The position numbers and the translations under genes are program-made. This document shows positions 21,687 to 59,990 of a stretch of DNA of 64,000 nt, in pieces. Source of the DNA: a bacterium (GTDB lineage Bacteria; Patescibacteriota; Dojkabacteria; JAKAPS01; JAJZLI01). The DNA lies in the NCBI GenBank assembly GCA_021791275.1, contig JAJYWX010000003.1, forward strand, positions 29,641 to 93,640. The letters run 5' to 3'. The notes below the pieces were generated by a model. The model was given only the letters and a program-made list of their open reading frames with translations. It did not search any database and was not told where the DNA came from. Positions within the stretch are counted from its first letter, which is position 1; each line of letters starts with the position of its first letter.

Positions 21687-22931
21687 ATGCTCAAGAAAAT
21701 AAGAAAATTTACTGAAGACGCTAGTATTTCAGAGCCAATAGCATATGTTATTTTTATAAGGATATTTATAAAGGTTTTTATTTTCTTATCCGCACTCTAC
21801 TTCAAGCTTAATTATGCATCATTGTCAATAATTATATTTATATTTCTAGTAACAGAAATATATAGAAATATTGGTACAATTTTATCGGCCACCAAAAAAT
21901 TTCCTGATGAACTTATCGGAGGAATAATATCAGCACTGGATGGTGCAATGATAGTACTTTTACTTTACTACACAAACCTTTTAGGAAGTTATCTATACAT
22001 TTTTATAATACTTTCAATAGCTTTCGATACAATCGAATATGGTATTACTGCAGGTATGGCTGAAGGATTAACTGCTTCAATTTCATATGTATTTTTAGAA
22101 GGGTTTATAAGTACTAATTATACAGAAATTTTAATTAAAGCTTTAATAATAATCATAATTGGAATTATTACAGGATGGCTGAGTGAAAAAATGAAAAATA
22201 GTGAAAAATTGCTACAGAATACTTTAATGAAAAGTAAAAAAGCACAGAGGTTAAATAAGATAAAAGATGAGTTTATTGGAATTAGTTCACATAAAGTAAA
22301 AACTCCAATATCAGTTATTAAAGGTTATATTGAGTTACTCCTCAATGGAAGAGCAGGAGACTTAAATGAAGCTCAAAAAGATTACTTACTGAAAATAGAT
22401 GCCAACACATCTACATTAAATATGCTAATTGACGATCTTCTAAGTATACTTACATTGCAAAATAATAAAATTACAATAATCCCTGCTGAAAATTATATTA
22501 TAAAACTCTTAAATGAGATAAAAAGCAATTTTGAAGCTGAGGAAAAGATAAAGAATATAAAATATTTAACTGATATTGATATAAAAGATAATAAGTTGGC
22601 TGTTTTTGATTATGATAAAATAAAGATAGCAATATCAAATATACTCTCTTATTCTTTTGAAAAATCTAGAGAATCTATAACCTTAAGATCTTATGTAAAT
22701 GAGAATAGTTGGTTTATAGAGGTAAAGGATGATAGTCTAGGTGTAAGTAAAAATGAAGTAAAAAGAATACTTTCGGATAAAAATGAAATTTTCCAAACAA
22801 TAAAAGAGTTAGGAAATAAAGGATTAAATTTATATATATCAAATCTCATAATTCAAGCCCATAAGGGAAGGTTTGAAATAATATCAATAGAGGGTATAGG
22901 TACAACCTTTAAAATTAAACTACCACTATGA
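21687..22931 (+). CDS. Second sensor histidine kinase, paralogous architecture
   Basis: H-box SSHKVKTPISVIKGY and a C-terminal HATPase-like region, after 5-6 TM helices. Confidence 0.75.
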   Translation: MLKKIRKFTEDASISEPIAYVIFIRIFIKVFIFLSALYFKLNYASLSIIIFIFLVTEIYRNIGTILSATKKFPDELIGGIISALDGAMIVLLLYYTNLLGSYLYIFIILSIAFDTIEYGITAGMAEGLTASISYVFLEGFISTNYTEILIKALIIIIIGIITGWLSEKMKNSEKLLQNTLMKSKKAQRLNKIKDEFIGISSHKVKTPISVIKGYIELLLNGRAGDLNEAQKDYLLKIDANTSTLNMLIDDLLSILTLQNNKITIIPAENYIIKLLNEIKSNFEAEEKIKNIKYLTDIDIKDNKLAVFDYDKIKIAISNILSYSFEKSRESITLRSYVNENSWFIEVKDDSLGVSKNEVKRILSDKNEIFQTIKELGNKGLNLYISNLIIQAHKGRFEIISIEGIGTTFKIKLPL

Positions 22932-23287
22932 GTAAAATATTATTAGTTGAAGATGACAATGACTTAGTAAATATATATAAAGAAGAACTTAGTTTTTCTA
23001 ATATAGATTTTGATATCGCTACAAATGGAGAGGATGCAATTAAAAAAAATGAATCTTTTGATTATGATTTGATAATGCTTGACATAATGCTTCCTGATAT
23101 TAGTGGAATAGATGTACTTAAGAAAATCAAGGAAAAAGATAAAGATAAAAAAGTTATTGTGATATCAAATTTAGAAGTCCCTGCAATAATAAACCAAGCT
23201 TTTGCGTTAGGTGTTAATGCCTATCTTATAAAAGCAGAGCTTCTGCCATCTCAGATAATAGAAGAGGTAAAAAGACTTATAACATGA
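22928..23287 (+). CDS. Single-domain response regulator (CheY-like receiver only)
   Basis: LLVEDDNDL...DLIMLDIMLPDISGIDVLKKIK...KVIVISN. 119 aa with no output domain. Confidence 0.8.
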   Translation: MSKILLVEDDNDLVNIYKEELSFSNIDFDIATNGEDAIKKNESFDYDLIMLDIMLPDISGIDVLKKIKEKDKDKKVIVISNLEVPAIINQAFALGVNAYLIKAELLPSQIIEEVKRLIT

Positions 23288-24960
23288 ATGAATTAATCCT
23301 TTATACTACAGCTATACTAACTTTAGCATTAATCGGTGGTTATATAGCTGTAAAATTTAAGCAATACGCAATAGTAGGCTACATATTGATGGGAGTTATA
23401 ATAGGGAGTTTTATTTCCAAAATTCCAGGATCAGAAAATGACATACAAACTCTTTCTTATATAGGTGTTGCATTACTAATTTTTTATACAGGTACGGAAT
23501 TTTCTCTAGGCAAGGTATTGGAATACAAAGGTGTTATTATTAAAGGAATAATAATACAATTTATTATAAATCTTTTAATAATAACATTCCTATTATTTAT
23601 ACTAAAAATAAATATCATTCAAAGTATAATTATTTCTGCAGCACTTTCCTTTAGTTCAACTATTATTGTAAGCAAAATACTAAAAGATCTTGATAGGAAT
23701 TATTCCAATGAAAATCAAATAACTATATCTTGGTTAATGTTACAAGACCTTATATCTATCCCTGTGATAATTTTTATAGAAGATTTTGCACAAAGAGTAC
23801 ACGGTAGTATGCTTATTTTTTCAATATTATCACCAATACTAAAGAGTATTTTACTTCTTATCATAATTTATTATCTAGGATCATTAATCATTCCATACAT
23901 ACTAAAGGAGATAGCAAAAACAGAAATAAGAGAACTTTTAATAATATCGATAATCTGTATTTTATTTATAATGATAACTCTATCTTATTACATAGGTATA
24001 TCCCCTGTAATAGGTGCATTCATTGCAGGATTAATCATTTCCAAAGGGATGCTCAATCATGAAATTTCATCAGAAATTCGGCCATTTAAGGATATATTTT
24101 CTGTATTCTTTTTTATACTTATTGGGACACTCACTCCAATATCTTTTATATTTTCACATATAATAATTATTATTCTTTTAATAATATTTTTTGTACTAAT
24201 AAAGATTATAGTAGAATACTTACTTTTGAATAATTTTCATTTCCACTCTCTTGAATCATTTACTATTGCTCTCAATATGTTCCAAGCTGGAGAATTTTCA
24301 TTTATTGTGGGATTAACTGCATACTCATATGGATTATTATCATTTAATAATTATCATCTGCTATTATCAGTCACAATAATAACTATGATATTTTCCCCTA
24401 TTGTTATAAAAAATAATATTAATATATATAATTTTATAAAAAGATTCTTAGGAAAAAAGGATAATAGAAGCCATACCTCTTCCCAAGTAGAATCAGAGAA
24501 AGATTCTCATAGTGATATAGTAATTGCAGGATATGGACGAGTTGGAAGACAAATAACAAATATTTTAGTCAAAAATGGTATATCGGTAACTGTCATTGAT
24601 TTTAATAAAGATTTAATAAATTCAGAGAAGAATAAGAACATAAGATTTGTTTATGGAAATGCCGAATCTTTGGATATATTAAAATTTGCAAGAGTGCCTG
24701 ATGCGAAAGTTTTAATTATAACTACGCCAGAAATAGAAGTTAATTATGAAATAACAACTCTTTCAAAAAAAATTAATCCAAGGATAAAGATAATTGCAAG
24801 ATCTCACTTGCCAAAACATAAAGAGATTCTATCTAAATCAGGGGTAGAACATGTTATAGAACCTGAAAAAGAGGCTGCGAAAAAAATGACTGAGATCCTA
24901 TTGCAATCTATTGGCAAAAAAGAAAAAGAAATACTTTTTATATTAGATAATATTAAGTAA
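23284..24960 (+). CDS. Monovalent cation:proton antiporter (CPA2, Kef-type) with C-terminal RCK/TrkA-N domain
   Basis: About 12 TM helices, then Rossmann IAGYGRVGRQITNIL and a TrkA-N-like domain. Confidence 0.8.
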   Translation: MNELILYTTAILTLALIGGYIAVKFKQYAIVGYILMGVIIGSFISKIPGSENDIQTLSYIGVALLIFYTGTEFSLGKVLEYKGVIIKGIIIQFIINLLIITFLLFILKINIIQSIIISAALSFSSTIIVSKILKDLDRNYSNENQITISWLMLQDLISIPVIIFIEDFAQRVHGSMLIFSILSPILKSILLLIIIYYLGSLIIPYILKEIAKTEIRELLIISIICILFIMITLSYYIGISPVIGAFIAGLIISKGMLNHEISSEIRPFKDIFSVFFFILIGTLTPISFIFSHIIIIILLIIFFVLIKIIVEYLLLNNFHFHSLESFTIALNMFQAGEFSFIVGLTAYSYGLLSFNNYHLLLSVTIITMIFSPIVIKNNINIYNFIKRFLGKKDNRSHTSSQVESEKDSHSDIVIAGYGRVGRQITNILVKNGISVTVIDFNKDLINSEKNKNIRFVYGNAESLDILKFARVPDAKVLIITTPEIEVNYEITTLSKKINPRIKIIARSHLPKHKEILSKSGVEHVIEPEKEAAKKMTEILLQSIGKKEKEILFILDNIK

Positions 24961-25503: not shown

Positions 25504-25785
25504 ATGGATGTTAAAACATTTTTTGAATTGATAAAAATAATATCAATTGATTACCCCATAGCATTAATATTTGGAATAATTGTTTTTTTTATATCTAGAA
25601 AATTTATAATTAAAAATTATATTATAGATTTATTAATAGCTTTTATATTTTTTATAATTTTTACATTTATACCTTATTCTATAGTTGATAGGGGATATTA
25701 TTTAGCTTTTATGGTATATATTAATAAAGGAATAACAAATATATTTAATCAATTAGCAAGTAGCATACTTTTACATAAATCATAG
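25504..25785 (+). CDS. Hypothetical small membrane protein
   Basis: 93-aa ORF with 2-3 hydrophobic helices. Confidence 0.3.
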   Translation: MDVKTFFELIKIISIDYPIALIFGIIVFFISRKFIIKNYIIDLLIAFIFFIIFTFIPYSIVDRGYYLAFMVYINKGITNIFNQLASSILLHKS

Positions 25786-26313
25786 AGGCTCAATCAAACC
25801 GTAAGTAACACCATCATCTCTTTCATATACCATTGTATACTTACCTGTTTCTATATTTCTAAATAAGAATGATTTATGACCAAGTAGTATCATTCTCTCT
25901 ATTGCTTCTTGAGGGTGTATAGGAGTGTTATCTGAATATTTTTTAACCTTAATGATAGGTCTATAATCGATCTCACTACTTTTAACTTCATTCCCATAAT
26001 CCTCCCAATCTTCATCTCCTGAGAAATATTTATGGCTTTTCTCTTTATATCTTACTACCCTCTCTTTTAATGTTGATACTACATCTTCAACACAATCATA
26101 AAACTTTGAACCACTTTTAGAAGCTCTTATTATTACATCATTATATAATGCTGAAATCTCTATCTTATAAAGTTTCCTTTTTTCTTCTTTTATCTTGACA
26201 TACAGTGGGTTCTCCTTATCTAAAAGATGAGAAAGAGTTGATATTTTCTTTTCAATAAAGTCTTTCTCACTTTCTGTAATTTCATAGTTTAGTATTGTGT
26301 ATTTTATATCCAT
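25780..26313 (-). CDS. hpf: Ribosome hibernation promoting factor (long HPF/RaiA family)
   Basis: N-terminal MDIKYTILNYEITESEKDFIEKKISTL...YKIEISA..., the S30AE fold pattern, plus a C-terminal dimerisation extension. Confidence 0.75.
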   Translation of the reverse strand: MDIKYTILNYEITESEKDFIEKKISTLSHLLDKENPLYVKIKEEKRKLYKIEISALYNDVIIRASKSGSKFYDCVEDVVSTLKERVVRYKEKSHKYFSGDEDWEDYGNEVKSSEIDYRPIIKVKKYSDNTPIHPQEAIERMILLGHKSFLFRNIETGKYTMVYERDDGVTYGLIEPL

Positions 26314-26314: not shown

Positions 26315-27670
26315 TTAAAATCTTTTTATTTTATCAAATCCAGTATACTCTCTTAGAACCTTAGGTACAAGGATACTTCCATCTTCTTGTTGATAATTTT
26401 CAAGTATCGCTATCAAACTTCTTCCGAGAGGAGCCCCTGTATCATTTACTGTATGTACATAATTAAGCTTTCCATTTTCATCTCTATATTTTATATTTAG
26501 TCTTCTTGCTTGGAAATCGGTTGCATTTGTACATGTACCCACTTCTATAAAAGTATTCTGAGATGGTAACCAAGCCTCAATATCTGACTGTATAGCACTT
26601 GCATAATAACCAGAATCTCCTTTACATTTTAAAATTATATGAAAAGGAATCTCTAATGACTCCCAAAACCATTTATTGATATCTAAAAGTTTCTTAAAAA
26701 TTTTATCGGATTGATCAGGAGTCGATACAACATCCATTTCTAATTTATCAAATTGATGTACTCTTTTTATCCCTCTTACATCTTTTCCCCAAGATCCTAC
26801 TTCAGTTCTAAAACAAGTTGTATTTGCAAATACCATCTGAGGAAGTTCATATTCATCAAGTATTTTATCCATAAAATAAGAAAAATTACTCGGTTCTGAT
26901 GATCCAACTAGATAAAGTTTATTGTTATCTTCTACTTTTGAATCTTCAACAGAGTAAACCTGGTCTTTCTCTTGAGGGAAATGACTAGTCCCATATAAAG
27001 ATCTTTCTTTAACAAGTAATGGTGGATTTAGAGGGTAAAAACCCTCTTCTATAAGTTTTTTTGAAAGATGAGATACTATTGCCCATTGAAGTAGTACTCC
27101 TTCCTTTTTAATATATGAAAATCGAGAACCAGAAACTTTTGCAGATTGATTTATATCAATAATATCATTAATTTCTCCTAGTTCAACATGATCTCTCAAC
27201 TCAAAATTATGGTTATCAGAATGAGAAGAATATTTAGGCATATATTGGGAGGATTTATTATCTTTCCCTAATTTAGATTTATCAAACGATTTTATTTCCG
27301 GACTCCAAGCATAAGTTTCAATATTATCCTTTTCTTCTGACCCATCTGGGACTTCATCTTTAAATACATTTGGAATCCAAAGCATTAGGTTATTATATTC
27401 TTCTTCAATAAGGGAAAGTTCTTTATCTAAAGATTCTTTTTGTTTCTTTAGATTTTTCCCAGTCTCTATTAATTTTTCATCCCTTACACTCTTTAACTTA
27501 TGTGAAATCTCATTTCTTTGCCTATTTATACCATCAACTTTTTCTATAAGTTCGACTCTTCTTTTATCTGATTCCAAAAGTTTATCTAGAATACTAACAT
27601 CTAACTTCCTACCTAAAAGACTAGACTTCACTTTATCTTGATTTTTTCTTATATAGTCTATACTTAACAT
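26315..27670 (-). CDS. serS: Serine--tRNA ligase
   Basis: N-terminal coiled-coil arm (MLSIDYIRKNQDKV...) and class II motifs (FRTEVGSWGKDVRGIKRVHQFDKLE, GRSLIAILENYQ). The start is taken at the MLSIDY methionine, because the longer ORF would overlap the upstream gene. Confidence 0.85.
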   Translation of the reverse strand: MLSIDYIRKNQDKVKSSLLGRKLDVSILDKLLESDKRRVELIEKVDGINRQRNEISHKLKSVRDEKLIETGKNLKKQKESLDKELSLIEEEYNNLMLWIPNVFKDEVPDGSEEKDNIETYAWSPEIKSFDKSKLGKDNKSSQYMPKYSSHSDNHNFELRDHVELGEINDIIDINQSAKVSGSRFSYIKKEGVLLQWAIVSHLSKKLIEEGFYPLNPPLLVKERSLYGTSHFPQEKDQVYSVEDSKVEDNNKLYLVGSSEPSNFSYFMDKILDEYELPQMVFANTTCFRTEVGSWGKDVRGIKRVHQFDKLEMDVVSTPDQSDKIFKKLLDINKWFWESLEIPFHIILKCKGDSGYYASAIQSDIEAWLPSQNTFIEVGTCTNATDFQARRLNIKYRDENGKLNYVHTVNDTGAPLGRSLIAILENYQQEDGSILVPKVLREYTGFDKIKRF

Positions 27671-27683
27671 AAAGCTAAATTTA

Positions 27684-28151
27684 TTATAATAAAAATTCGG
27701 AGGATTTAATATAATAAAGTAGTATACCACAGGCGACTGAAACATTTAAAGAATTTTTTTTACCATACATTGGTATTTCTATTACATAATCTGATGATTT
27801 AATTATTTCATCACTAACACCATCTATTTCATTACCTAAAGCTAGGCAAATTTTTTTAGGATACTTAATATCTGTATACAAATAACTTTCTTTTTTCTGT
27901 TCTGCAGAATATATAGGTATATCTAATTTTTTTATTTTATTTAATATAAATATTAAATCTCTATTATATTCCCAATCAACATAATCAAGAGCTCCTAGAG
28001 CAGTTTTATCCAACTTATGATCTGGAGGATAAGGAGTATATCCTGATAAAAATATTTTTTTTACACCTACAGCATCAGCAGTCCTAAATATTGACCCCAC
28101 ATTAAACGCACTTCTAATATTATATAATAATAAGTAAATATCCCTATTCAT
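27684..28151 (-). CDS. SpoU-family RNA 2'-O-methyltransferase (TrmL-like)
   Basis: 155 aa with SPOUT motifs NVGSIFRTADAVG, LGNEIDGVS and IPMYGKKNSLNVSVACGILLY. Confidence 0.7.
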   Translation of the reverse strand: MNRDIYLLLYNIRSAFNVGSIFRTADAVGVKKIFLSGYTPYPPDHKLDKTALGALDYVDWEYNRDLIFILNKIKKLDIPIYSAEQKKESYLYTDIKYPKKICLALGNEIDGVSDEIIKSSDYVIEIPMYGKKNSLNVSVACGILLYYIKSSEFLL

Positions 28152-36284: not shown

Positions 36285-37046
36285 ATGCATAAAGTAAAAG
36301 ATTTTATCCTGCCCACCAAAGCAAATAACTTTAAATCTCCCCTACTTTCAAATAAAGCATTGACAGTATATTTCATTTTTCTATTATTTATAAATATAAT
36401 ACTTCCAATTTTCGCAATAAAATCAAACGTATCTATATTATCCCTATACAATAATATTAATAAATATAGAGAGGATCATAATTTAAAAGATTATGTATTT
36501 AGTAAATCCTTGTCTCAATCAGCTCAATTTATTATCGATGATATACAAAGATATCAGTATTTATCTAGAATAAACCCAATTACAGGATATACGTATTATT
36601 CTTTTATTGATACTAAGAGATTTTCTAATAACAATGAAATAATACTTAAAAATTATAACCTATCTAATATCAACACACAAAATATATTTAACTCATATTC
36701 AAACGCGATATTAAATAAGACAAATGATATTGGTATAGCGACTCAAAAAATTAATTTTTTTGGAACACCCTCATACATAACAGTTATTCTTACAGCCTAC
36801 GGAAACTCAAAAAATACGACACCGGTTTTTACAAGCAATACTCGAGGAGAATTTATTGATTACTCAATAATAACTTATACGGATTTCTTACTTATAATAT
36901 TTATACTTTCTTTAATGTTTTTAGATATAACATTTTCTATTTATTACAATTCTTTTGAAGATAAAAGCATCCCGCATACCAATTTCGCAATGGTTGTAAT
37001 TGCAATACTTATTATATTAATCTTAGTTATTGGAATAAGCATATGA
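36285..37046 (+). CDS. Hypothetical membrane-anchored protein with extracytoplasmic domain (weak CAP/SCP-like resemblance)
   Basis: 253 aa with an N-terminal TM, a soluble domain of about 150 aa (NNINKYREDHNLKDY...), then 2 C-terminal TM helices. Confidence 0.35.
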   Translation: MHKVKDFILPTKANNFKSPLLSNKALTVYFIFLLFINIILPIFAIKSNVSILSLYNNINKYREDHNLKDYVFSKSLSQSAQFIIDDIQRYQYLSRINPITGYTYYSFIDTKRFSNNNEIILKNYNLSNINTQNIFNSYSNAILNKTNDIGIATQKINFFGTPSYITVILTAYGNSKNTTPVFTSNTRGEFIDYSIITYTDFLLIIFILSLMFLDITFSIYYNSFEDKSIPHTNFAMVVIAILIILILVIGISI

Positions 37047-37858
37047 AGAAATTAATAAAATATAATATTGAAATATTAACTTTGCTCTTCTTCGTTTCTT
37101 TGCAAATATTGATTTTTTTGCTTTTTATATCTTCAATAAATTTCATACTTATATATATATTTATAATTGACCTTATAGTCATAGTATCTTTAATTGATGG
37201 AACGAAGAAATTTAAAGAAAATGTAAAAGAAAAAAAGATTTCTAAAAATGATAAAAATATATACTTCTATAATCAACTCATAATACCTTTAGTTTTATTT
37301 CTATCTACAGAAGTATTCTTAATAATTAACAGATTTAATATCTATTTTTCAGAGCTTACACTTATAATAACAGTAGTATTATTTTTTACATCACTAAAAT
37401 ACTTTGAAGCTTATTTTGAAGTATTTGAATTTAGTGAGAAAGCACATTTTACAATAAATGCTGTAAAGCTTTTTATATTCTTTATACTTATATACTCCCT
37501 TTTTGAGGTATCATCAATCCTTTATATATCCCAATATATACAGTCAGCATTTGTACTACTTATATCTTTTGCACTAATATTAATGATAATGCAAAGAAAT
37601 AAGATTTATTCATTAAAATTTATACTCTACTCTTTTTTAATTTCTCTATTTATATCTTTAATATCTCTTTTAGAAAATATTTATCTGCAGAATGTACTTC
37701 TTACAACATTTTCTATATCTTTAATATTTTATTTTTTTGAAAATATACTCCATCATAAATTTCATAATACACTCACCAGAGAGATTATTATTCAATACAT
37801 CTTAATAATATTAATACTATTTCTTCTAATTAAAGGTGTTGTTGGACTATCTCTATGA
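37043..37858 (+). CDS. Hypothetical polytopic membrane protein
   Basis: 271 aa with 7-8 hydrophobic helices. Start overlaps the upstream stop. Confidence 0.35.
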   Translation: MKKLIKYNIEILTLLFFVSLQILIFLLFISSINFILIYIFIIDLIVIVSLIDGTKKFKENVKEKKISKNDKNIYFYNQLIIPLVLFLSTEVFLIINRFNIYFSELTLIITVVLFFTSLKYFEAYFEVFEFSEKAHFTINAVKLFIFFILIYSLFEVSSILYISQYIQSAFVLLISFALILMIMQRNKIYSLKFILYSFLISLFISLISLLENIYLQNVLLTTFSISLIFYFFENILHHKFHNTLTREIIIQYILIILILFLLIKGVVGLSL

Positions 37859-42637: not shown

Positions 42638-43660
42638 TTACTCTAATAACCTTAGTACTTCGACTCTTCTTGGATCTTCTTCTGTACCAAAACATTCAAT
42701 ATCACCTTTCTTTATAAAATCAATCTCCTTTTTTGTAAGAGGAATCTTTTTTAAAACTTTTCTATGTATTCTTGTCAATTTTCTCATATCTGTAAAAGTT
42801 TTTCTGAATTTTTCAAATGAATTTAATTCTCTTAATAATTTTTCCAATACATCATACATAATTGGATCTACATTTTGTTGAAATAAAATACCTCTGGCTT
42901 CAACTACTTCTCCATTTTTTAACCTAATAACAAGTCTTGGAACCTTTTTTCCATTTTCATCATAATCATAATAAACATATATATCACCATCATTGAGATA
43001 CATAAATGCTTTATACCTCTTTTCTATACACCATCCAGTATTATTCCCACTTAAGGATGATACTAATGCATCCTCATCTCCTTGAGAGTATCTTTCCCAA
43101 TCACCTTTTTTATATTTACATGTTTCAGAAAAATTTGGACTCTGCTGAACTCCATAAATTTCTCGTGCATATAATCTGGAAAATCTTCCATTGTCGCCCA
43201 AAAGTATACTTAGATACACATTATGCACGGCTCCTTCATGAATAGGGGGAAACGGATCTAGAGTGGTTTTACTACGACTTGAGAATTCTCCCCATCCCTT
43301 ATTATACCCTGATAATTTAAGTACTGACCTTAATACTAAATATTTAAACCAAATTGGATAATCTGATTGTCTCATATATTCTATCCAAGAGCTTAAACTT
43401 TCATATTGACCTTTTCTTATAACCTCTAATTCCGAATCCGTAAGATTCGGGTTATCTTGGGATTTTACAAGATGATATTCTATGAATCTTTTCAGTGCCT
43501 CAGGATTAGGGTTATCTCTAAAAACAGAGTGTCTTGACTCAAGATTACATAAATAAGAAGATACTAAATCAGGCTGTTTAGCAGAAAATTGTACTTCTGC
43601 AGAGTTACTTAATTCATATCTTTCCAGAGGATAAGTTATTTGCCTTTCTTCATTTTCCAA
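42638..43660 (-). CDS. Hypothetical protein (340 aa), no recognisable family
   Basis: Long intact ORF with Arg/Glu/Tyr/Trp-rich composition unlike its neighbours and no TM helix. Directly upstream of the receiver-only gene. Confidence 0.45.
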   Translation of the reverse strand: MENEERQITYPLERYELSNSAEVQFSAKQPDLVSSYLCNLESRHSVFRDNPNPEALKRFIEYHLVKSQDNPNLTDSELEVIRKGQYESLSSWIEYMRQSDYPIWFKYLVLRSVLKLSGYNKGWGEFSSRSKTTLDPFPPIHEGAVHNVYLSILLGDNGRFSRLYAREIYGVQQSPNFSETCKYKKGDWERYSQGDEDALVSSLSGNNTGWCIEKRYKAFMYLNDGDIYVYYDYDENGKKVPRLVIRLKNGEVVEARGILFQQNVDPIMYDVLEKLLRELNSFEKFRKTFTDMRKLTRIHRKVLKKIPLTKKEIDFIKKGDIECFGTEEDPRRVEVLRLLE

Positions 43661-46014: not shown

Positions 46015-46515
46015 CTATTTTTTTTCGTAAATTTTTTCTAATTCCTTGTCTGTATAGAGTTTATAAGGTTTCTTCATAAGATCCATAAACATTTTCCCGT
46101 CCATATGATCTATCTCATGTTGTATAAGGTGAGAGTAAAATCCCTCAAACTGATAAGTTCTTCTTTTTCCAAATTCATTAAAATATTCTACTGCAATTTT
46201 TCTTGGTCTTTTAACTTTTCCAAAAAGATTCCCTTCATTAAGAGACATGCACCCTTCCCAATCAGATGACAAACTTTCATCTTTAAATAATATTTTAGGA
46301 TTTATCATTACTTCCCAGTCATCCTCAACATATATAACAGACATACGAATTTTAACTCCTACCTGCACACTTGCAAGACCAACGCAGTTATCTACTGATT
46401 TTCCATAATTAATCATTTCTGAGGCTAAATCTCTTAATTTTTTATCAAAATCCTTGACTGGCAAAGATTTCTGTCTTAATATTGGGTTTCCCTCTTTTAT
46501 TACATTTATAGCCAT
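46015..46515 (-). CDS. def: Peptide deformylase
   Basis: Motifs GLASVQVG, EGCMSL and QHEIDHMDG. Confidence 0.9.
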   Translation of the reverse strand: MAINVIKEGNPILRQKSLPVKDFDKKLRDLASEMINYGKSVDNCVGLASVQVGVKIRMSVIYVEDDWEVMINPKILFKDESLSSDWEGCMSLNEGNLFGKVKRPRKIAVEYFNEFGKRRTYQFEGFYSHLIQHEIDHMDGKMFMDLMKKPYKLYTDKELEKIYEKK

Positions 46516-46516: not shown

Positions 46517-48157
46517 TTATTTCCAAGAAAAATTTAAAATTCCTTTATTTGATCTTAAAACCATACTACAATCTTTTTTATGTATTTTTATAACTCCTCC
46601 AACCCCTACTCTTCCTACAATGCTATCTCCTTTTTTAGGGTTACAACATTTAGATAATTTTATAGTGATATTATCAAATATAATATTATTTTCAATAGTT
46701 GGATCTTTTGATATATTTGTATTTTGTATTTTTTTGTCTTTTTCCTTCTTATTTTTTTCAATATCTACTTTATCTTTTTCTTTACTAAATTTTCTTATTT
46801 TTCTTTTTATTCCTGGATTTTGGGCTATTTGCTCCCAGCTCTTCTTAGGAATATTAGAATTTTTATCTTTAATAATCTCAACGATATCTCCTGAAGAGAG
46901 CTGATATATCAAAGGAACCATTTTTCCATTAACTTTAGCACCTTTTATGGAATTCCCTATTTGTGTATGTATAGAATATGCAAAATCTACTGGAGTTGAG
47001 CCTTTTTTCAATTGTTTCACCATATACATAGGTGTAAAAACAAATATTTTGTCTTCAAACAATTTTAATCCACTAATATCCTTACCTCCTGAAAAAGATA
47101 AATTTTTAACCCAATCAAATTGATCCTTAGAATTCCCACTTTTATAACTTATATGAGAAGCAGGTCCAAATTCATTATACTCGTGCATTTCATATGTTTT
47201 TATTTGTATTTCTACTAATTTATTATCTAATGCTTTTACTGTAGTCTGTAGAGCCCTAAAACCATTGGATTTAGGTCTTGAAATATAGTCATCAAATTCT
47301 TCAGGTATATATGTAAAAATTGTATGAATTTGACCTAAAACTTTGTAGCAAAGTTCAATATTACTTACAAGTATAGTAAATGCCCAAAGGTCATTTAGAG
47401 TAAAAATAAATTCATCAGAGTAATATCCATATATTTTAATAATTTTGTTATATATGCTGTATATGTTTTTTCTTCTTCCAAAAATATCTATATTGATATC
47501 GATTTTATCCTTGATATATTTTTTAAGTTTATCTGAATATAGGTTATCTTCTTTATAATCTTTATCAATAACTTCTAGGATCCTTTCATATATTTCTGGA
47601 TTTATTATACTAAAAGATAAATTATCAATTTCAGATTTAATTACATTTAAACCTAAATATTCAGATATTGGAGAATAAATATTAAAAATCTTTTTTGCAA
47701 AATCTTTTTTTAAATCTTCATTATCAAAATTTCCTTCTTTCAGAAGTGTATACTTATCTATAATTTTAAGTATCAAAACTCTAATATCTCTGCATGAAGC
47801 TATTAAATATTTCTTCAAAGCATCAAAATCTTGTTTATCCACATTTTCGCAAACTGACAAAATGTTATCCACATTTTTCATTCCCCTTTTGATGTTAACA
47901 AATATATGCCCAAATTCTTCTGCAATAAAGCCATCATCATACATATCAAAATTTACAAGAGAAGATATTATTGTTATAGAATCTAGATTAAAATTTATAC
48001 AGCTTATACATCTTTCAATCTTATTACTTTTTTCAATCTCACTTCCATCTTTCTCAAGAAACATATATGCTTTCCTTAAAAGAATAAGGTCAATATCTGT
48101 TCCATTTTTTTTTATAAAATCAATCAAATTTACAAAATCTTTTTTTTTATCATTCAT
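46517..48157 (-). CDS. rel: RelA/SpoT-family (p)ppGpp synthetase with degenerate (pseudo) HD hydrolase domain, a TGS domain and a C-terminal Cys/His cluster
   Basis: Synthetase core GRRKNIYSIYNKI...DLWAFTILV...EIQIKTYEMHEYNEFG...HISYK. TGS domain VFTPMYMVKQLKKGSTPVDFAYSIHTQIGNSIKGAKVNGKMVPL. C-terminal CCNPKKGDSIVGRVG...HKKDC. The region aligned to the HD domain lacks the His, His-Asp and Asp residues. Start is taken at MNDKKKDF, where ATGA overlaps the recJ stop. Confidence 0.8.
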   Translation of the reverse strand: MNDKKKDFVNLIDFIKKNGTDIDLILLRKAYMFLEKDGSEIEKSNKIERCISCINFNLDSITIISSLVNFDMYDDGFIAEEFGHIFVNIKRGMKNVDNILSVCENVDKQDFDALKKYLIASCRDIRVLILKIIDKYTLLKEGNFDNEDLKKDFAKKIFNIYSPISEYLGLNVIKSEIDNLSFSIINPEIYERILEVIDKDYKEDNLYSDKLKKYIKDKIDINIDIFGRRKNIYSIYNKIIKIYGYYSDEFIFTLNDLWAFTILVSNIELCYKVLGQIHTIFTYIPEEFDDYISRPKSNGFRALQTTVKALDNKLVEIQIKTYEMHEYNEFGPASHISYKSGNSKDQFDWVKNLSFSGGKDISGLKLFEDKIFVFTPMYMVKQLKKGSTPVDFAYSIHTQIGNSIKGAKVNGKMVPLIYQLSSGDIVEIIKDKNSNIPKKSWEQIAQNPGIKRKIRKFSKEKDKVDIEKNKKEKDKKIQNTNISKDPTIENNIIFDNITIKLSKCCNPKKGDSIVGRVGVGGVIKIHKKDCSMVLRSNKGILNFSWK

Positions 48158-49809
48158 GATGAGTGAGGTTTTAAATCTAATATTTTTAATTGTAAATCGC
48201 TTTTTCCATTCCAAGTATTTTCAGTTATATTAAATGCTATATCCACATTTCCAAATTTAACAATTTCCTCTGGAGTATATATTGATGAGAACCAAATTGA
48301 ATCAATATATATATTCTTTTCTTTATCCGTTAGCCTTAATTTAACAAATTTCTTTGAATTGCCTACATTTGATGCAGACATAACAATACAAGAGTATGAA
48401 ACAAAAATGGGTTGAGGATTCCCAACTCCAAATGGTTTCAAAAGATTAATTTGATTATATAAATCATAATTTATGTTTTTAAGATGTATTGGAAAATCAA
48501 TTTTTAAAACTTTATCTCGTATACGCCCCTTTAAAAATTCTTTTGCATAATTATTAGCATGTAATTTTAATTTTGGTATATCTTCAAATTTTATTTGCAA
48601 TCCTGCAGCAGCTTCATGTCCTCCATACTTTATTAGATATTCTTTTCCCTTATCTAACATATCTACAATATTGAAATTTTCAATACTTCTTGCAGAACCA
48701 ACATAAACTCCTTTACTTTCACTAGATGTTATAGCTATAGTAGGTTTTCCACTCTCCTCTGTAATCTTCCCTGCAACAAGTCCTATAATCCCCTCTCCCC
48801 AATTATTCGAGACTACAATATTAAAAAAATCACTTCCATCTATTTGCTTCCATGCCTCTTCTAATGCATTCTTGGTCATATTCTGCCTTTCTATGTTAAA
48901 CTGATGTAGTTTTGATGATAAATTCTCGGCCGCCTTCTTATTCTTTGTAGAAAGTAATCTAAGAGAATGTATTGGGTCGTAAAGCCTCCCAGGAGCATTA
49001 ATCTTAGGTCCTATTACAAATCCTATATGATATACATCTACTTCATCAATATTAGAAACCTTTATTAGAGAATCTATCCCTGGCCTTTTTCTGGAATTTA
49101 TTATCTCTAATCCCATATTAACAAATGCCCTATTCTCTCCTATAAGCTTTGATACATCACAAATAGTTGCTAAGCAGACAAGATCTAGATACTCACTCAT
49201 ATCAAATTCATTTTTCTTATTAAGTGCACAGGCCAATTTGTATGCAACCGCTGCACCACATATTTCAGGTCTACCATACCCTAATGCAGGATGAATATTT
49301 ACAAAACTTTTTGGGATATTTTCAGAGATCAAATGGTGGTCTGTTATTATTAAATCAATTCCCAATTTTTTAGCAAGCAAAGCATTTTCTGTATCTCTTA
49401 TTCCACAATCAACTGTTATTACTAAAGTATAACCTTCCTTTGCAAACTCTTTTAATTTATCTCCATTAAGTCCATACCCTTCTGTAAATCTTGAAGGAAT
49501 AAATGGAAATGCATTAGCATGCATCTTATTGTATAAAAAGTCCCAAAGTATTGATGTTGCAGAAATCCCATCTACATCGTAATCTCCATATATAAGTATC
49601 TTCTCTTTGTTTTTAATTGCCTTTTTAATCCTTGATACCGCAGTTTTCATGCCATCAAATAAAAAAGGATCAAAAAGATAATTCGGATTTAAAAAATACT
49701 CAATTTCAGAAGGTGAAATATTCCTGTTAGCAAGGAGAATTGCCAAGAAACTATCTATACCCTTATAACCAGATACATCAGGATTCCTATATATATTCCA
49801 ATAGGCCAT
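48154..49809 (-). CDS. recJ: Single-stranded-DNA-specific exonuclease RecJ
   Basis: DHH motifs (YGDYDVDGISATSIL, ITDHH) and a DHHA1 region. Confidence 0.85.
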   Translation of the reverse strand: MAYWNIYRNPDVSGYKGIDSFLAILLANRNISPSEIEYFLNPNYLFDPFLFDGMKTAVSRIKKAIKNKEKILIYGDYDVDGISATSILWDFLYNKMHANAFPFIPSRFTEGYGLNGDKLKEFAKEGYTLVITVDCGIRDTENALLAKKLGIDLIITDHHLISENIPKSFVNIHPALGYGRPEICGAAVAYKLACALNKKNEFDMSEYLDLVCLATICDVSKLIGENRAFVNMGLEIINSRKRPGIDSLIKVSNIDEVDVYHIGFVIGPKINAPGRLYDPIHSLRLLSTKNKKAAENLSSKLHQFNIERQNMTKNALEEAWKQIDGSDFFNIVVSNNWGEGIIGLVAGKITEESGKPTIAITSSESKGVYVGSARSIENFNIVDMLDKGKEYLIKYGGHEAAAGLQIKFEDIPKLKLHANNYAKEFLKGRIRDKVLKIDFPIHLKNINYDLYNQINLLKPFGVGNPQPIFVSYSCIVMSASNVGNSKKFVKLRLTDKEKNIYIDSIWFSSIYTPEEIVKFGNVDIAFNITENTWNGKSDLQLKILDLKPHSS

Positions 49810-49810: not shown

Positions 49811-50824
49811 TTAAAAATTCTCTCTAACTTTTTGCTCTATTTCTTTATAAAGATCTTTATCTTCCTTCAATAGTTCTTTAAGCGAATCTCTACCTTGTGC
49901 TAACTGTTTGTCTCCCATTCTAAACCAAGCCCCTGATCTTTCTAAGATTCCCATCGATACTGCAGTATCTATTAAAGCACTTTCCTTTGAAATCCCATCT
50001 GGAAAAATAATATCAAAGCTTGCTTCTTTAAAAGGAGGTGCAACTTTATTTTTTACAACCTTAGCAACAACATTATGCCCAATAACATTATCTCCTTTTG
50101 TTATTTTCTCCTTCCTTCTTATATCAATTCTAATAGAAGAATAGAATTTCAAAGCGTTTCCTCCTGTAGTAACTTCTGGAGATCCAAACATTACTCCAAT
50201 CTTTTGTCTTAATTGGTTTATAAATATCACAGTACAATTGGAGCGAGCAGATATAGATGTTAGCTTTCTCATTGCCTTTGACATTAACCTTGCCTGAAGA
50301 CCTATTGATGTATCTGACATCTCACCTTCTATTTCAGCCTTAGGAGTAAGAGCTGCGACTGAATCTACAACTACAACATCTATTGATCCTGAACGTATTA
50401 AAGTTTCAACAATCTCTAAAGCTTGTTCTCCATAATCAGGTTGAGATAAAAAAACTTCATCTATATTTACACCAATTCGTCTTGCATATTCTGGATCTAA
50501 GGCATGTTCAGCGTCTATATAGACTATTTTCCCACCCTTTTTTTGTGCTTCAGCTATAATATGTAATGCCAAGGTGGTTTTTCCTGAACTTTCTGGCCCA
50601 AATATTTCAATTATTCTTCCTCTTGGAATTCCTCCAACACCTAATGCATAGTCAAGAGAGATTGCTCCAGTGGAATATACCTCCACTTCCATGTTAGGCT
50701 TCTCTCCCCATTTCATGACAGATCCTTGTCCGAACTGCTTTTCTATTTGGGATAATGCTATTTTTAATGTCTCATCTTTATTGAAATCAAGCTTATCTGT
50801 AGTTTTTTTATCACTTTTAGCCAT
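49811..50824 (-). CDS. recA: Recombinase RecA
   Basis: Canonical RecA sequence (GPESSGKTT, Walker B, L1/L2 loops). Confidence 0.95.
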
Positions 50825-50887: not shown

Positions 50888-52207
50888 TCAATTAGATCTT
50901 TTAGATAGGTTTGCAAACTTTGCTTGTTCTTTTATAAATTTGATTTCTACTTGACCAACTGGACCATTTCTATGTTTTGAAACAATGACATCTGCAATAC
51001 CTTTTCTATCCGTATCCTGGTCATAAAGTTCTTCTCTATGAAGAAAGATTACAACATCTGCATCCTGCTCTATAGCACCAGATTCTCTTAAATCTGAGAG
51101 TTGAGGAATTTTTGAAGTCCTATTTTCAACAGCACGAGAAAGCTGAGATGCAGCAATAACAGGGACTTTTAATTCTCTAGCCATATTCTTTAAAAATCTA
51201 GATATTTCTGAAACCTCCTGAACCCTATTTTCCTTATTTGTTCCAGCTATAAGCTGTAAATAATCTACTATTATAAGATCAATATTTTTATCTATATCTA
51301 ATCTTCTTGCCTTAGTACTCATTTCCATAATGCTTTGCCCAGGAGTATCATCTATGTATAGATTGGCCTCTGAAAGCCTTCCCATGACATCAGCCAAATT
51401 TTCTAATTTAGATGAATCAAGGTGTCCCATCCTATAATCCCAAAGATTCATTTCTACTTGAGAAGATATTAGTCTATCTGTAAGCTCAGAATTAGACATC
51501 TCTAAAGAAAACATAGCAACATTCTTATTTCCTCTCAAAGAAGCATTTCTTGCTATATCTAAAAGAAAAGAGGTTTTCCCAACTGAAGGCCTTGCAGCAA
51601 CAATAATCAGGTTAGATTCTTGAAAACCTCCCAATATATTATCTAAATCTACAAAACCACTAACTATACCTCTAAGTTTATCCTTACTTTTCTCAATCTC
51701 TTCTGCCCTCTTATAACTTTCAGATAATAGCTCTTTTAATGGTATAAAATCAGTACTAATATTTGATGAAGAGACTCCAAAAAGTTTTTTTTCAGATTCA
51801 TTTATAACATCTGATATATTCTTGTTTTCATCAAAACTTAAATCCACTATATCTGCACCAGTCTTTATAAGTTCCCGCCTTATATATAATTCTTTGACTA
51901 AATTTCCATAATAAACAGCAGATAAAGCACCCGCTGTATTTTCTACTAATTCTGCTAAATAAACCTCTCCTCCTATTTTTGATAATAATTTCTTCTTAGA
52001 AAGGTAAGTTTTAACACTCATTATATCAACTGGTGAACCTTCCTGAAAAAGATTTACTATTGCATTATATATCTCTCTATTGGAATCGAAGTAAAAATAT
52101 TCTGGTTTTAAAAACTCAACAAGATCTAAAAGAGAATCTTTACTCATTAAAATAGCATTTAAACAAAGTTTTTCTGCTTCAAGATTTTGTGGTAATCTTT
52201 TGTCCAT
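50888..52207 (-). CDS. dnaB: Replicative DNA helicase DnaB
   Basis: N-terminal domain LPQNLEAEKLCLNAIL, Walker A ARPSVGKT and RecA-like C-terminal motifs. Confidence 0.9.
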   Translation of the reverse strand: MDKRLPQNLEAEKLCLNAILMSKDSLLDLVEFLKPEYFYFDSNREIYNAIVNLFQEGSPVDIMSVKTYLSKKKLLSKIGGEVYLAELVENTAGALSAVYYGNLVKELYIRRELIKTGADIVDLSFDENKNISDVINESEKKLFGVSSSNISTDFIPLKELLSESYKRAEEIEKSKDKLRGIVSGFVDLDNILGGFQESNLIIVAARPSVGKTSFLLDIARNASLRGNKNVAMFSLEMSNSELTDRLISSQVEMNLWDYRMGHLDSSKLENLADVMGRLSEANLYIDDTPGQSIMEMSTKARRLDIDKNIDLIIVDYLQLIAGTNKENRVQEVSEISRFLKNMARELKVPVIAASQLSRAVENRTSKIPQLSDLRESGAIEQDADVVIFLHREELYDQDTDRKGIADVIVSKHRNGPVGQVEIKFIKEQAKFANLSKRSN

Positions 52208-56654: not shown

Positions 56655-57858
56655 CACCTTTAACTTCTATTGCTTTTTGGAGCTGTGTATCAATACCCTT
56701 TTCAAATTCTTTTGCAGAAAATTTAACTTTCACATTAGGTATTATTGGATTCTGAGGAGTAATCCACCTACCTGAAGGAAGTAACCAATGCTTTGTTGTA
56801 AGTACCAATAATGCCCCATCAGAGAAATTATATACATTTTGAGCAGTCCCTTTACCATATGTATTCTCTCCTACTACAACAGCTCTATGATAATATTGCA
56901 AAGCCCCTGTAAAGATTTCTGCAGAAGATGCAGTTTCACCATTTACAAGTATAACTAAAGGTGTATTTTGAAGATTACCTTGATAATTTGTATCAAACTG
57001 CTGGATACCCCCTCCCCTACTTTCTTGTTCAGCGACTAAACTTCCTTGAGGCAAAAATTCACCTGCAGCATACACAGCTGCATCAAAATAACCTCCAGGA
57101 TTCCCTCTTAAATCTAAGATAATTTTTGAAGGATTCTCTGCTTCAACTTTTGACATTGTACTTGAGAAAGAATTTTCCCATTGTGATAATGTTGAATCTG
57201 AAAATCTTAAAATTTGAACATCCACTACTCCATTCCCAAGATTCTTTACCACTTCGCTGGATACATGAATATTTTGTCTTTCTATTTTATAATTTTTAAA
57301 ATTACCATTTATTGTATCTATTCCCAAAGTTAAATAAGTCCCACTTTTACCTCTAACATCATTTACTAAAGTGTTTATATTGGAAATATTCTTTCCATTA
57401 AAAGTTTTTATTATATCTCCATCCTCAAGGCCAGCTTTTTGTGCTGGAGTATTTGGTAAGACCTCATTTATAATAATATTTCCTGAATGATTGAACCCTA
57501 AAGCAACACCTATTCCAGCAAAGGAATTACCAGATATTGCATCATAATACTGAGATGCTTGAGAAGGTGAAAAAAATAAAGTATGAGGATCTCCTAATGA
57601 GTTTACCATACCATTTATAGCACCATAATATAACTTTTTATTATTTAAATTCTCATAATAATAATCTGTATGTATTACATTCCAAACATTATTAAAAAGA
57701 TTTGGGTTTATACCATTTGATGAAAGAGGACTTGATATATTGCTTTGGGTAAAAAATGATGAAGGAGAAAAATTAGAACCTGCCCAAAATCCTATTGCAA
57801 GGCAAACTATCGCAAGCAGAGATACTGTAATATATTTATTAAAAAGAATATTTTTCAT
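56647..57858 (-). CDS. Carboxyl-terminal processing protease (peptidase S41, CtpA-like) with PDZ domain
   Basis: N-terminal TM, PDZ segment (GDIIKTFNGK) and the S41 core (GNPGGYFDAAV..., GETASSAEIF..., YGKGT). Confidence 0.8.
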   Translation of the reverse strand: MKNILFNKYITVSLLAIVCLAIGFWAGSNFSPSSFFTQSNISSPLSSNGINPNLFNNVWNVIHTDYYYENLNNKKLYYGAINGMVNSLGDPHTLFFSPSQASQYYDAISGNSFAGIGVALGFNHSGNIIINEVLPNTPAQKAGLEDGDIIKTFNGKNISNINTLVNDVRGKSGTYLTLGIDTINGNFKNYKIERQNIHVSSEVVKNLGNGVVDVQILRFSDSTLSQWENSFSSTMSKVEAENPSKIILDLRGNPGGYFDAAVYAAGEFLPQGSLVAEQESRGGGIQQFDTNYQGNLQNTPLVILVNGETASSAEIFTGALQYYHRAVVVGENTYGKGTAQNVYNFSDGALLVLTTKHWLLPSGRWITPQNPIIPNVKVKFSAKEFEKGIDTQLQKAIEVKGAT

Positions 57859-58862
57859 TAATCTTCAATTATACCAACAATGTCATCAATTTGTATATTA
57901 ACATTATTCCCGTTATCTAGATTTAGATTACACTCTTTACCTATGGAATTTATTGAATTTACCCTTCCTGTATATCCCCAATAAGGATACGAAAATATTT
58001 GAACTTTATCAGAAACTTCTACTTTTTTTATATCAAAAAGTTTATCATCTCTTTTTGACTTATTATCCGATATAACAAAGGCCATATTTGATTGATCTAT
58101 AAAAGCGGGAGATTTGTGATTCTTTTCAAGAGAGTAAAAACAAGAATTCTCAATTACACCAAACCCATCCGTAACTCCAACAGTTATTGGAATAGAATTT
58201 ACAAAATCTTCAATACTTTCATTGTTCCTCAGTTCTATACCATTACCCATTATCCCTACAACACCAACAGCCACAGATTTTTTGATAATCTCCATAGTTA
58301 TTAAATTACCTACATATATTATATCTCCAATAACAGAGGCATTGATATTTTCTAAATTCAAAAATCCTTTGTTATCACATAAATATCGAAAATTTGCCTC
58401 TGTGCTAGGTCCAAAAATATATCTTAAATCTATTTTCAATACTGGAGAATCTATTACAACCCTACTTTTATCATCTGATATATATGATACTGTACCAGAT
58501 ATTTTGGATATATTTACTATATCTTCTGGATATGATTTTACTAAAATAAAACCAGAAGGAAGATGAGATAAATCGACTATACCATCTACAGGCGCCTCTA
58601 TTTGTTTTTTCCTTTTTTTAATAATCGGATCACCCTTATGAACAATTTCTCCATTTTCAACTAGAACATATTTCACAAAATTAGTGGAAAAATCAGAAAC
58701 TTTTATCCTATATGACATCTTACTAATATGTCCTTTAGATATAACAGTATCATCAGATATAATATCATTTAAAGATACCATAAGATGAGTATCAGGATCT
58801 ATAAATCTTGAATATTTATAACTATGTATGTATGCTATTTTTTTTAAAAAAACTATCTCCAT
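57858..58862 (-). CDS. Hypothetical protein (334 aa)
   Basis: Intact ORF that overlaps the S41 protease gene by 1 nt. No recognisable motif. Confidence 0.4.
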   Translation of the reverse strand: MEIVFLKKIAYIHSYKYSRFIDPDTHLMVSLNDIISDDTVISKGHISKMSYRIKVSDFSTNFVKYVLVENGEIVHKGDPIIKKRKKQIEAPVDGIVDLSHLPSGFILVKSYPEDIVNISKISGTVSYISDDKSRVVIDSPVLKIDLRYIFGPSTEANFRYLCDNKGFLNLENINASVIGDIIYVGNLITMEIIKKSVAVGVVGIMGNGIELRNNESIEDFVNSIPITVGVTDGFGVIENSCFYSLEKNHKSPAFIDQSNMAFVISDNKSKRDDKLFDIKKVEVSDKVQIFSYPYWGYTGRVNSINSIGKECNLNLDNGNNVNIQIDDIVGIIED

Positions 58863-58865
58863 AAT

Positions 58866-59990
58866 TTAAAAAACTAAATCCTGAGAATTTTCTATCCAAC
58901 GAGATATTTCGATAGGAGTTAATTTATCAATATCCTTAGTATATATAAACACCTTACTTTTTGATATTAACTCAACATCTCCTCTTTTATTCCCTATGGA
59001 TACTCCATTAGGAAGTTTTATAGTTATATGTGCTGTACCATTAACAGGTATATTTATAAGATCATTCAGCTTAACATTTATTTCCTTAACACTTTCATCA
59101 TCTATAACTTTTATAGGAATAATTAGAGATTCATTTTCTTTTTTATCAAAACTAATATGGAATACATCTCCTATATGATTAATTTTAGAGAATATATAAT
59201 CATCAGGGAGAATGCCTAAAAAAGGAAAAATATTTGAATTATCTGTATAAAGAGATATTATTCCTCGTATATCAAGTCCATATAGAAGCGAGAATATTGC
59301 ATAATTGCTATCAGATAGAAATTGATATATATCACCACTAAGTATAAATATAGGGACAGAGTCCTGAGGTTCAAAAGAGAATGATGAAAGTAAATTTTTA
59401 TTTAAAGTTGAAATTATTGGTAAAAACAACTCTTCTCGGTAGGACAAAGATTGTTTTGTTAAAGCATTATAAAGGTTATATTTTTTAATTTTTCCATTAA
59501 GTATTGAAAATTGAGAAAAATCTTTGATTTTGAATAATTCATCGTACATAAAATCAAAAGTTTTTTTAGAACTTGTGAAATTTATATTCCCTGATATGAA
59601 AATATTATCTCTTGATACATTAACTACAAAACAAGGTATATCATAAAACTTTTTTGCAAAATACTTTGTTTTATCATTTAAAAAATTCTGATCAATATTT
59701 ATAACCTTTTCTGTGATTTTCAAAAGATCTTTTTTAAAAAAATCCAAAGATGTATAAATTTCAATGTTAAGATCATCATCGGGAGAATGATAACTAAAAT
59801 TATAAAGTAAAACCTTTATAAATTTATTAATGAATAAAACTCTGTCAAAAAGGGGATTAAAAAATTCTTGGACTAAAGATATTTTTTTTGATGATAATAC
59901 TTGTCCATCAAAAAAGATAAAACCTTTTATATAAAAATTATCTATTGATATTATTATTTTATAATTCTCTCTCCTATCTTTATTTTCCAT
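58866..59990 (-). CDS. Hypothetical protein (374 aa)
   Basis: Intact ORF 21 nt downstream of rpsR. No recognisable motif. Confidence 0.4.
   Translation of the reverse strand: MENKDRRENYKIIISIDNFYIKGFIFFDGQVLSSKKISLVQEFFNPLFDRVLFINKFIKVLLYNFSYHSPDDDLNIEIYTSLDFFKKDLLKITEKVINIDQNFLNDKTKYFAKKFYDIPCFVVNVSRDNIFISGNINFTSSKKTFDFMYDELFKIKDFSQFSILNGKIKKYNLYNALTKQSLSYREELFLPIISTLNKNLLSSFSFEPQDSVPIFILSGDIYQFLSDSNYAIFSLLYGLDIRGIISLYTDNSNIFPFLGILPDDYIFSKINHIGDVFHISFDKKENESLIIPIKVIDDESVKEINVKLNDLINIPVNGTAHITIKLPNGVSIGNKRGDVELISKSKVFIYTKDIDKLTPIEISRWIENSQDLVF

Follow-up and report, generated by a model that had tools for sequence, protein, structure and literature searches.

A probable RelA-like (p)ppGpp synthetase with a destroyed hydrolase site and a reduced C-terminal region in a deep-branching lineage of Patescibacteria

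We report that a rel-like gene in a 64,000-nucleotide stretch of contig JAJYWX010000003.1 (assembly GCA_021791275.1, positions 29,641 to 93,640; the whole stretch is referred to as the window) probably encodes a monofunctional, RelA-like (p)ppGpp synthetase of a deep-branching bacterium of the Patescibacteria (Candidate Phyla Radiation, CPR), and that this synthetase has lost its hydrolase and is regulated by the ribosome. The gene is located on the minus strand at 46517..48157, with an ATG at 48157 and its end at 46517 (546 codons and the stop), and the open reading frame (ORF) together with its Pfam and NCBIfam matches identifies the product as a long RelA/SpoT homologue (RSH) of the [hS] type. 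It is composed of HD-like, synthetase (SYNTH), TGS and zinc-finger (RIS) domains, and having these four domains it is not a small alarmone synthetase (SAS), i.e. a lone SYNTH domain without HD, TGS and the C-terminal domains. What is new here is the independent origin of an [hS] enzyme within the CPR together with the loss of both the helical and the RRM domains; RelA[hS] enzymes lacking the ACT domain are already known.

The hydrolase site of the rel-like protein is destroyed while the HD fold is kept. The hydrolase residues of RelSeq are the Mn2+ ligands H53, H77, D78 and D144, the ED diad E81-D82, and N148. The N-terminal 190 residues were aligned by phmmer to Bacillus subtilis Rel, by MAFFT in sets of 17 and of 120 sequences, and by a custom HD profile made from relatives whose HD is intact, and both metal-binding His residues are gone by all three methods. 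Specifically, a 7-8-residue deletion takes out the R44..GExxxxHP segment beside H53 (RelSeq numbering), and the HDxxED motif falls on N-F-D-M-Y-D (MAFFT, phmmer) or on F-D-M-Y-D-D (profile register) within the string NFDMYDDG (residues 69-76; 47930..47953, minus strand), with N69 or F70 at the H77 position and YD or DD at the ED diad depending on the register. Further downstream, KIIDKYTLL (residues 131-139; 47741..47767, minus strand) stands at the place of K-L-A-D-R-L-H-N in the alignments, where A-D-R-L-H-N has become I-D-K-Y-T-L and the N148 position is a Leu. In an alignment-free count of residues 1-200, H84 (in EFGHIFV) was the only His and the dipeptide HD did not occur, and therefore H..HD..D is irrecoverable in any register. 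The four sister clusters have 0 or 1 His in the N-terminal region, at non-homologous positions, and the HD-intact relatives have 4-7, including all the canonical ones.

The initial annotation had proposed from KAYMFLEKDGS (residues 29-39), NFDMYDDG and KIIDKYTLL that every catalytic residue of the HD domain is substituted, provided that the register had not been mis-assigned. The three strings are present, and neither the profile alignment nor the His count recovered an intact HxnHDxnD motif. The proposal holds for both His ligands but goes too far for the Asp residues: D134 aligns with RelSeq D144 and is retained, and D71 aligns with D78 in the profile register only (F70-D71 as H77-D78). Since Q, R or E takes the D144 position in sister proteins (MAFFT), i.e. 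the remaining Asp residues are not conserved among them, D134 and D71 presumably carry no function. Moreover, the D/G of KAYMFLEKDGS had been taken as the first His position; it falls on the His of the 'AHxGQ' motif, which is not a ligand, and the true H53 position adjoins the deletion. Hence, of the ligands and motifs that characterize the hydrolase of bifunctional Rel[HS], only Asp equivalents remain.

The pseudo-hydrolase domain (residues 8-190; 47588..48136, minus strand) was nevertheless matched over positions 4-191 by the custom HD profile (81 bits, E 1e-24), and HD_4 (PF13328) gave a weak partial match covering residues 71-169 (37.1 bits vs a cut-off of 27.2). An AlphaFold2 (AF2) model built on 120 homologues had a mean predicted local distance difference test (pLDDT) score of 83.7, with about 85-94 for the N-terminal domain (NTD). 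Its top Foldseek matches were the ribosome-bound RelA 5iqr, Rel 6yxa and SpoT 7qpr, and the TM-scores against crystal structures of the catalytic halves (NTD) of Rel were 0.75-0.79. Likewise, the best relatives of solved structure in phmmer searches were B. subtilis Rel 6yxa (3.9e-71) and then E. coli RelA. Within the clade of the window protein (clade A, see below) mean pairwise identity is 52% for the pseudo-HD domain, 64% for SYNTH, 74% for TGS and 63% for the zinc finger, and 26% of the pseudo-HD columns are invariant among members that are ~52% identical overall. These numbers suggest that the pseudo-HD domain is still under constraint.

The SYNTH domain (residues 191-345; 47123..47587, minus strand) was recognized both by the alignments and by RelA_SpoT (PF04607), which scored 97.1 bits against a cut-off of 27 over residues 227-342. 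It contains GRRK (227-230), K238, D256, EFDD (287-290), PKxNGF (295-300) and E316-x-Q318. Across 120 homologues there is no variation at R228, K230, K238, D256 and E316, among others; Q318 is conserved to at least 90% in this set and does not vary in the smaller set of 17 sequences. In the phmmer register D256 corresponds to D264 of B. subtilis Rel, where the D264G change abolishes synthesis (PMC7058999). Our data therefore do not favour the alternative, raised in the initial annotation, that the synthetase is regulatory only; given the conserved catalytic residues it is probably competent.

The acceptor motif, EFDD, is of the EXDD type that has been tied to monofunctional RelA, and not the RXKD that has been tied to bifunctional Rel (PMC3153485). 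However, 20 relatives with fully intact hydrolase motifs carry EFDD as well (e.g. P0013, P0016, P0006, P0007, P0024 and P0035), most of them Patescibacteria Rel proteins of ~630-660 aa. Because HD-intact Patescibacteria Rel share it, EFDD is not diagnostic in this lineage, where the EXDD/RXKD dichotomy does not hold.

The C-terminal part combines conserved sensor residues with large deletions. In the TGS domain (residues 369-432; 46862..47053, minus strand; PF02824, 72.6 bits), H397 corresponds to H420 of B. subtilis Rel and H432 of E. coli RelA (phmmer register) and is invariant in 120 sequences; this His senses the tRNA 3' end and is required for activation by deacylated tRNA (PMC7058999). 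The zinc-finger or conserved-cysteine domain (residues 496-546; 46520..46672, minus strand), which the precomputed annotation lists as RelA_RIS (PF28438), aligns with E. coli RelA 582-641 (phmmer), and none of its C504, C505, H526 and C530 varies among 17 sequences. Mutation of the residues equivalent to H397, C504 and C505 in Rel/RelA disrupts activation by the ribosome and tRNA (PMC7058999). Between the two domains, only a remnant of the helical domain is left (46673..46861, minus strand), which AF2 modelled as one long helix (~448-474) followed by a K/E-rich linker of low confidence (474-489). The TGS His and the CC motif are 106 residues apart as compared to ~170-180 in full-length enzymes, the protein lacks ~100 columns of the alignment with full-length Rel (MAFFT, 17 sequences), and instead of a helical domain of about 88 aa between TGS and CC there is a helix of ~27 residues and a disordered linker. 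This deletion had gone unremarked in the initial annotation and emerged here from alignment and spacing. The annotation's statements that SYNTH, TGS and the Cys cluster are well conserved and that ACT/RRM is missing agree with our findings. The protein ends 16 residues past C530, no ACT domain was matched in it by Pfam, and the next gene, def, begins 1 nt past the rel stop, which leaves no space for a hidden ACT/RRM domain. The annotation's prediction of a hydrolase-dead, RelA-type enzyme of about 546 aa was likewise borne out by the His count, EFDD and the conserved SYNTH domain, with the proviso that the protein is RelA-type by design and not by descent.

Several observations weigh against a ribosome-regulated, RelA-like synthetase. 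First, both NCBIfam models score under their cut-offs, TIGR00691 (spoT_relA) with 308 bits against a trusted cut-off of 499 and the RelA equivalog NF008124 with 248 against 728; we attribute the TIGR00691 shortfall to the missing helical and ACT/RRM domains. Second, the SYNTH domain differs from model enzymes at three spots, i.e. Arg to Thr in D-x-x-A-x-R ('AFTILV'), IQIRT to IQIKT and SLHTTV to ALQTTV. Third, a Gly (G521) stands at the position of the zinc-finger Arg R619 of B. subtilis Rel (R629 in E. coli RelA), where a reversal of charge lowers activation by the ribosome and suppresses the toxicity of RRM deletion (PMC7058999). Added to the absence of the helical and RRM domains, this substitution leaves the coupling to the ribosome uncertain. 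Fourth, RelA without a hydrolase partner is lethal in E. coli, where loss of spoT kills relA+ cells (PMC3153485), and no partner was seen in the 84 kb of contig considered below.

The third point bears on the most serious rival, according to which the protein no longer responds to starved ribosomes and is a weak synthetase that is constitutive or regulated in some other way, and functionally closer to an SAS that carries additional domains. The loss of ~100 aa of helical domain and of the entire RRM domain would fit such an enzyme, as would G521, and the naturally ACT-less RelA of Francisella tularensis is activated ~4-fold less than E. coli RelA (PMC4708007). Against it, TGS is the best-conserved domain of the clade and the zinc finger is also well retained (see the identities above), and the preservation of H397, C504, C505, H526 and C530 is hard to explain without a function involving tRNA or the ribosome. 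Moreover, the Rel of C. ihumii (P0058), which is canonical, of full length and with intact HD motifs, likewise lacks the R619/R629 Arg, and for this reason we give G521 little weight. We consider ribosome independence rather unlikely. As background, laboratory deletion of the RRM from Rel and RelA enzymes that bear one is toxic through misregulated ribosome activation, and this is suppressed by mutations in TGS or the zinc finger (PMC7058999).

The first two points could also be accommodated if both catalytic centres were inactive and the protein acted solely as a ribosome- or tRNA-binding regulator. However, R228, K230, K238, D256, E316 and Q318 are all conserved, the PF04607 score is far above its cut-off, and SYNTH is more conserved within the clade than the pseudo-HD domain. 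The three substitutions are in addition common to HD-intact relatives, and we therefore regard them as lineage traits and not as decay. We find a doubly inactive protein very improbable. That the gene is a truncated, frameshifted or mis-assembled ordinary bifunctional Rel, as its short length (546 vs ~720-740 aa) and the scores under the family cut-offs might suggest, is scarcely credible, since 14 contigs, assembled independently and drawn from four sources (NCBI, JGI, ENA and Logan; the NCBI copy is GCA_027425295.1, contig DAIBVW010000002.1, 148 kb), encode an identical 546-aa protein, which rules out an assembly or frameshift artefact, while genes abut on both sides, the AF2 model is confident, and sister species with 51-54% identity share the length (552-560 aa), the deletions and the end point.

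A monofunctional, ribosome-regulated RelA-like synthetase thus accounts best for the data; its enzymatic activity, its dependence on the ribosome and the role of its pseudo-HD domain are predicted on the basis of sequence comparison. The rel-like gene would be translated within a tightly packed recA-recJ-rel-def unit, and the SYNTH domain, which keeps the residues for pyrophosphate transfer from ATP to GDP/GTP, would make the alarmone. By analogy with E. coli RelA, the pseudo-HD domain may be a partner to the synthetase, in a structural or an allosteric role. Regulation most likely still takes place on the ribosome, where H397 of TGS would read the free 3' end of a deacylated tRNA occupying the A-site and the CCHC zinc finger would anchor the protein between the ribosomal subunits. 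One helix in place of the helical domain, with no ACT/RRM domain, would constitute a minimal tether. Finally, (p)ppGpp would have to be removed by something other than the rel-like protein itself.

To trace the origin of the gene, relatives were drawn from a collection of 5.8 billion proteins (90% clusters) and from a library of 50% representatives. The same architecture was present in only five 90% clusters of the collection (546-560 aa, 51-54% identity). The four clusters other than that of the window protein range between 552 and 560 aa and agree with it in their deletions and end point, and all five form one 50% cluster (958 bits), after which the next match falls to 534 bits. Apart from this clade A, we distinguish clade B (Patescibacteria, ~655 aa), with full HD motifs and ACT and without the helical domain, and clade C (P0010-P0012, ~640 aa), without His ligands, with a 6-residue deletion at the same spot and without the helical domain but with ACT/RRM kept. 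Rel of the Dojkabacteria type (~630 aa) has an intact HD, a helical domain and a zinc finger, and no ACT. In a neighbour-joining (NJ) tree based on SYNTH and TGS, bootstrap support was 95% for clade A, 58% for A+B, 60% for A+B+C and 3% for A+C, and clades A, B and C are all remote from the proteobacterial RelA group. Because clade A nests among HD-intact Patescibacteria Rel and not with proteobacterial RelA, its hydrolase loss is independent of that in proteobacterial RelA; the losses in clades A and C are probably separate as well, although the tree supports this weakly. SecA of the host places it in a deep lineage of the Patescibacteria, 66-78% identical within its own group and ~46% to its nearest named relatives, Dojkabacteria/WS6 and Woykebacteria.

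More broadly, 43 of 274 relatives lack at least one His ligand as judged from profile-aligned ligand columns; these columns replaced a motif census by regular expressions only, which over-called degenerate HD domains (66/273). In a different part of the tree, a protein annotated from 'Candidatus Peregrinibacteria' (P0220 / P0394, 549 / 573 aa) has a convergent architecture with a degenerate HD, EFCD, a short spacer between TGS and the zinc finger and no RRM. The similar decay in clade C and in the Peregrinibacteria protein suggests that a RelA-like design arose several times within the CPR. Many CPR long RSHs of ~480-500 aa (P0023, P0037, P0039, P0057, P0140 and P0254, among others) stop just past TGS, most of them with their His ligands kept, and by ending without helical, zinc-finger and ACT domains they resemble the RshC truncation. 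Another RelA-type [hS] protein, P0198 (1168 aa), has an N-terminal extension of ~460 residues ahead of its pseudo-HD domain. Two MAG contigs labelled 'Candidatus Woesearchaeota archaeon' encode bacterial-type long RSHs in which HDxxED reads HDxxDF (3010-4947 of locus L011 and 9941-11929 of locus L012). They were considered as members of clade C and turned out to be a different, HD-bearing RSH, and their presence points to either mislabelled bins or transfer into DPANN archaea.

Compared with known systems, the window protein shares with the E. coli-type RelA[hS] of beta- and gamma-proteobacteria a pseudo-hydrolase domain with lost ligands, an active SYNTH domain (predicted here), EXDD, and TGS and zinc-finger domains with the same sensor residues (the H432 equivalent and the CC pair). 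It is, however, not an orthologue, as it branches with Patescibacteria Rel and scores far below the NF008124 cut-off, and without the helical and RRM domains it is ~200 aa shorter. To our knowledge, proteobacterial RelA is always accompanied by SpoT. F. tularensis RelA (647 aa) is likewise naturally hydrolase-dead and without ACT/RRM (PMC4708007, PMC3153485), and it is an active enzyme that is stimulated by ppGpp and by stalled ribosomes (PMC4708007). In contrast to the window protein, which is 100 aa shorter, it retains the helical domain, carries EXSD, belongs to proteobacterial RelA by descent and shares its genome with SpoT. By this analogy the window protein would be most like Francisella RelA in its working while falling outside the RelA orthologous group. 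The closest HD-intact Rel is the clade B protein P0006 (MCL4392803.1, 657 aa, 42-43% identity), which shares EFDD, 'AFTILV', IQIKT and the helical-domain deletion but has the complete R..GE....HP / HDxxED / DRLHN set and ACT/RRM.

ACT-less long RSHs are rare exceptions, reported for RelA[hS] of Francisella and Methylotenera and for Elusimicrobium Rel (Atkinson et al. 2011, PMC3153485). RshC is cut within the helical domain, and Haemophilus ducreyi SpoT has an internal deletion of the helical and CC domains (Atkinson et al. 2011). Both have thus also lost individual C-terminal domains, but they are [HS] enzymes with other sets of domains lost, and among the truncated long RSHs in Atkinson et al. 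2011 none combines a dead HD, a helical-domain deletion and loss of the RRM. Our literature searches on RSH or ppGpp in Patescibacteria/CPR found nothing specific.

As to the removal of the alarmone, searches with custom HD and SYNTH profiles against the six-frame ORFs of the window gave no second RSH, SAS or small alarmone hydrolase (SAH), nor was any detected with these profiles in the loci around rel in the same genome, in three sister genomes and in a clade B locus (L010). A sub-threshold profile match at 16906-17112 of the window (E 0.018, 8.9 bits) was judged to be due to chance. According to precomputed Pfam annotation, there is no other HD_4 or RelA_SpoT protein in 84 kb of the 148-kb contig (record 27,032-110,726), corresponding to perhaps a tenth of the genome. 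Bacterial synthetases have not been found without an RSH hydrolase, and a known non-RSH degrader of ppGpp is a Nudix enzyme in Thermus (PMC3153485). That the lineage is devoid of any RSH-type hydrolase, be it a bifunctional Rel/SpoT or a SAH, with the hydrolase-dead synthetase as its only RSH, is a possibility that we put forward tentatively and consider doubtful. Separately, a 144-aa NUDIX hydrolase is encoded ~5 kb past the end of the window (position 64000), at 15331-15765 of locus L076, and its closest relatives of solved structure are Ap4A hydrolases and Ndx1. It was considered as a ppGpp hydrolase and set aside, as it resembles generic Ap4A hydrolases with no specific link to ppGpp, and such a role would be purely speculative.

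The rel-like gene is part of a co-directional dnaB-recA-recJ-rel-def block on the minus strand. Upstream are dnaB (50888-52207), recA (49811-50824) and recJ (48154..49809; 551 aa with DHH, DHHA1 and RecJ_OB domains, read directly from the sequence), and downstream is def, which encodes a peptide deformylase of 166 aa (46015..46515; PF01327, 142 bits). The recA gene ends 1 nt ahead of recJ, and the TGA stop of recJ (48154-48156) overlaps the rel ATG (48155-48157) in ATGA at 48154-48157. Since neighbouring genes overlap or abut within 1 nt, recA-recJ-rel-def forms one tightly packed unit downstream of dnaB. The recJ/rel overlap and the recJ-rel synteny had been pointed out before, and the dnaB-recA-recJ-rel-def order is also kept in the sister loci L007 and L009. 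An upstream TTG start (57 nt upstream, 19 additional residues, 565 aa) was rejected, since this codon falls within recJ and the ATG-equivalent position is where the sister proteins start. Reading TGA as Gly was also rejected, given that TGA ends 10 of 27 long ORFs and that two class-I release factor genes are present.

Elsewhere in the window, a long ribosome hibernation factor (Ribosomal_S30AE and a C-terminal domain) is encoded at 25780-26313 on the minus strand, adjoining serS (26315-27745, minus strand); ribosome hibernation factors are typical downstream players of the stringent response. On the plus strand, 20478-24960 contains a tandem pair of HisKA/HATPase sensor kinases, after which come a response regulator and a Na+/H+ exchanger with TrkA_N, a signalling cluster that is unusually rich for a reduced genome. 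At 42638-43660 (minus strand), 57858-59990 (minus strand) and 36285-37858 (plus strand), the precomputed annotation records no Pfam match for several conserved ORFs of 250-370 aa. An Rfam scan of the window gave one tRNA and nothing bearing on rel.

With respect to the RSH family, our findings would mean that the design of RelA, in which a dead hydrolase domain is retained as a scaffold beside a live synthetase, arose again outside the Proteobacteria. The region consisting of TGS, one helix and the zinc finger would represent a natural minimal ribosome-sensing region, and as such would be useful for studying the activation of long RSHs. If it is true that the lineage has no RSH hydrolase, this would break the rule that a synthetase never occurs without one (Atkinson et al. 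2011, PMC3153485). The alarmone would then have to be cleared by a non-RSH enzyme (e.g. a Nudix pyrophosphatase, cf. Ndx8 in Thermus), by dilution or by the host cell, and the stripped C-terminal region, with no helical and no RRM domain and with Gly at R619, would be a compensating adaptation that holds synthesis tolerably low. In that case, our data would point to non-RSH turnover of the alarmone in ultra-small symbiotic bacteria.

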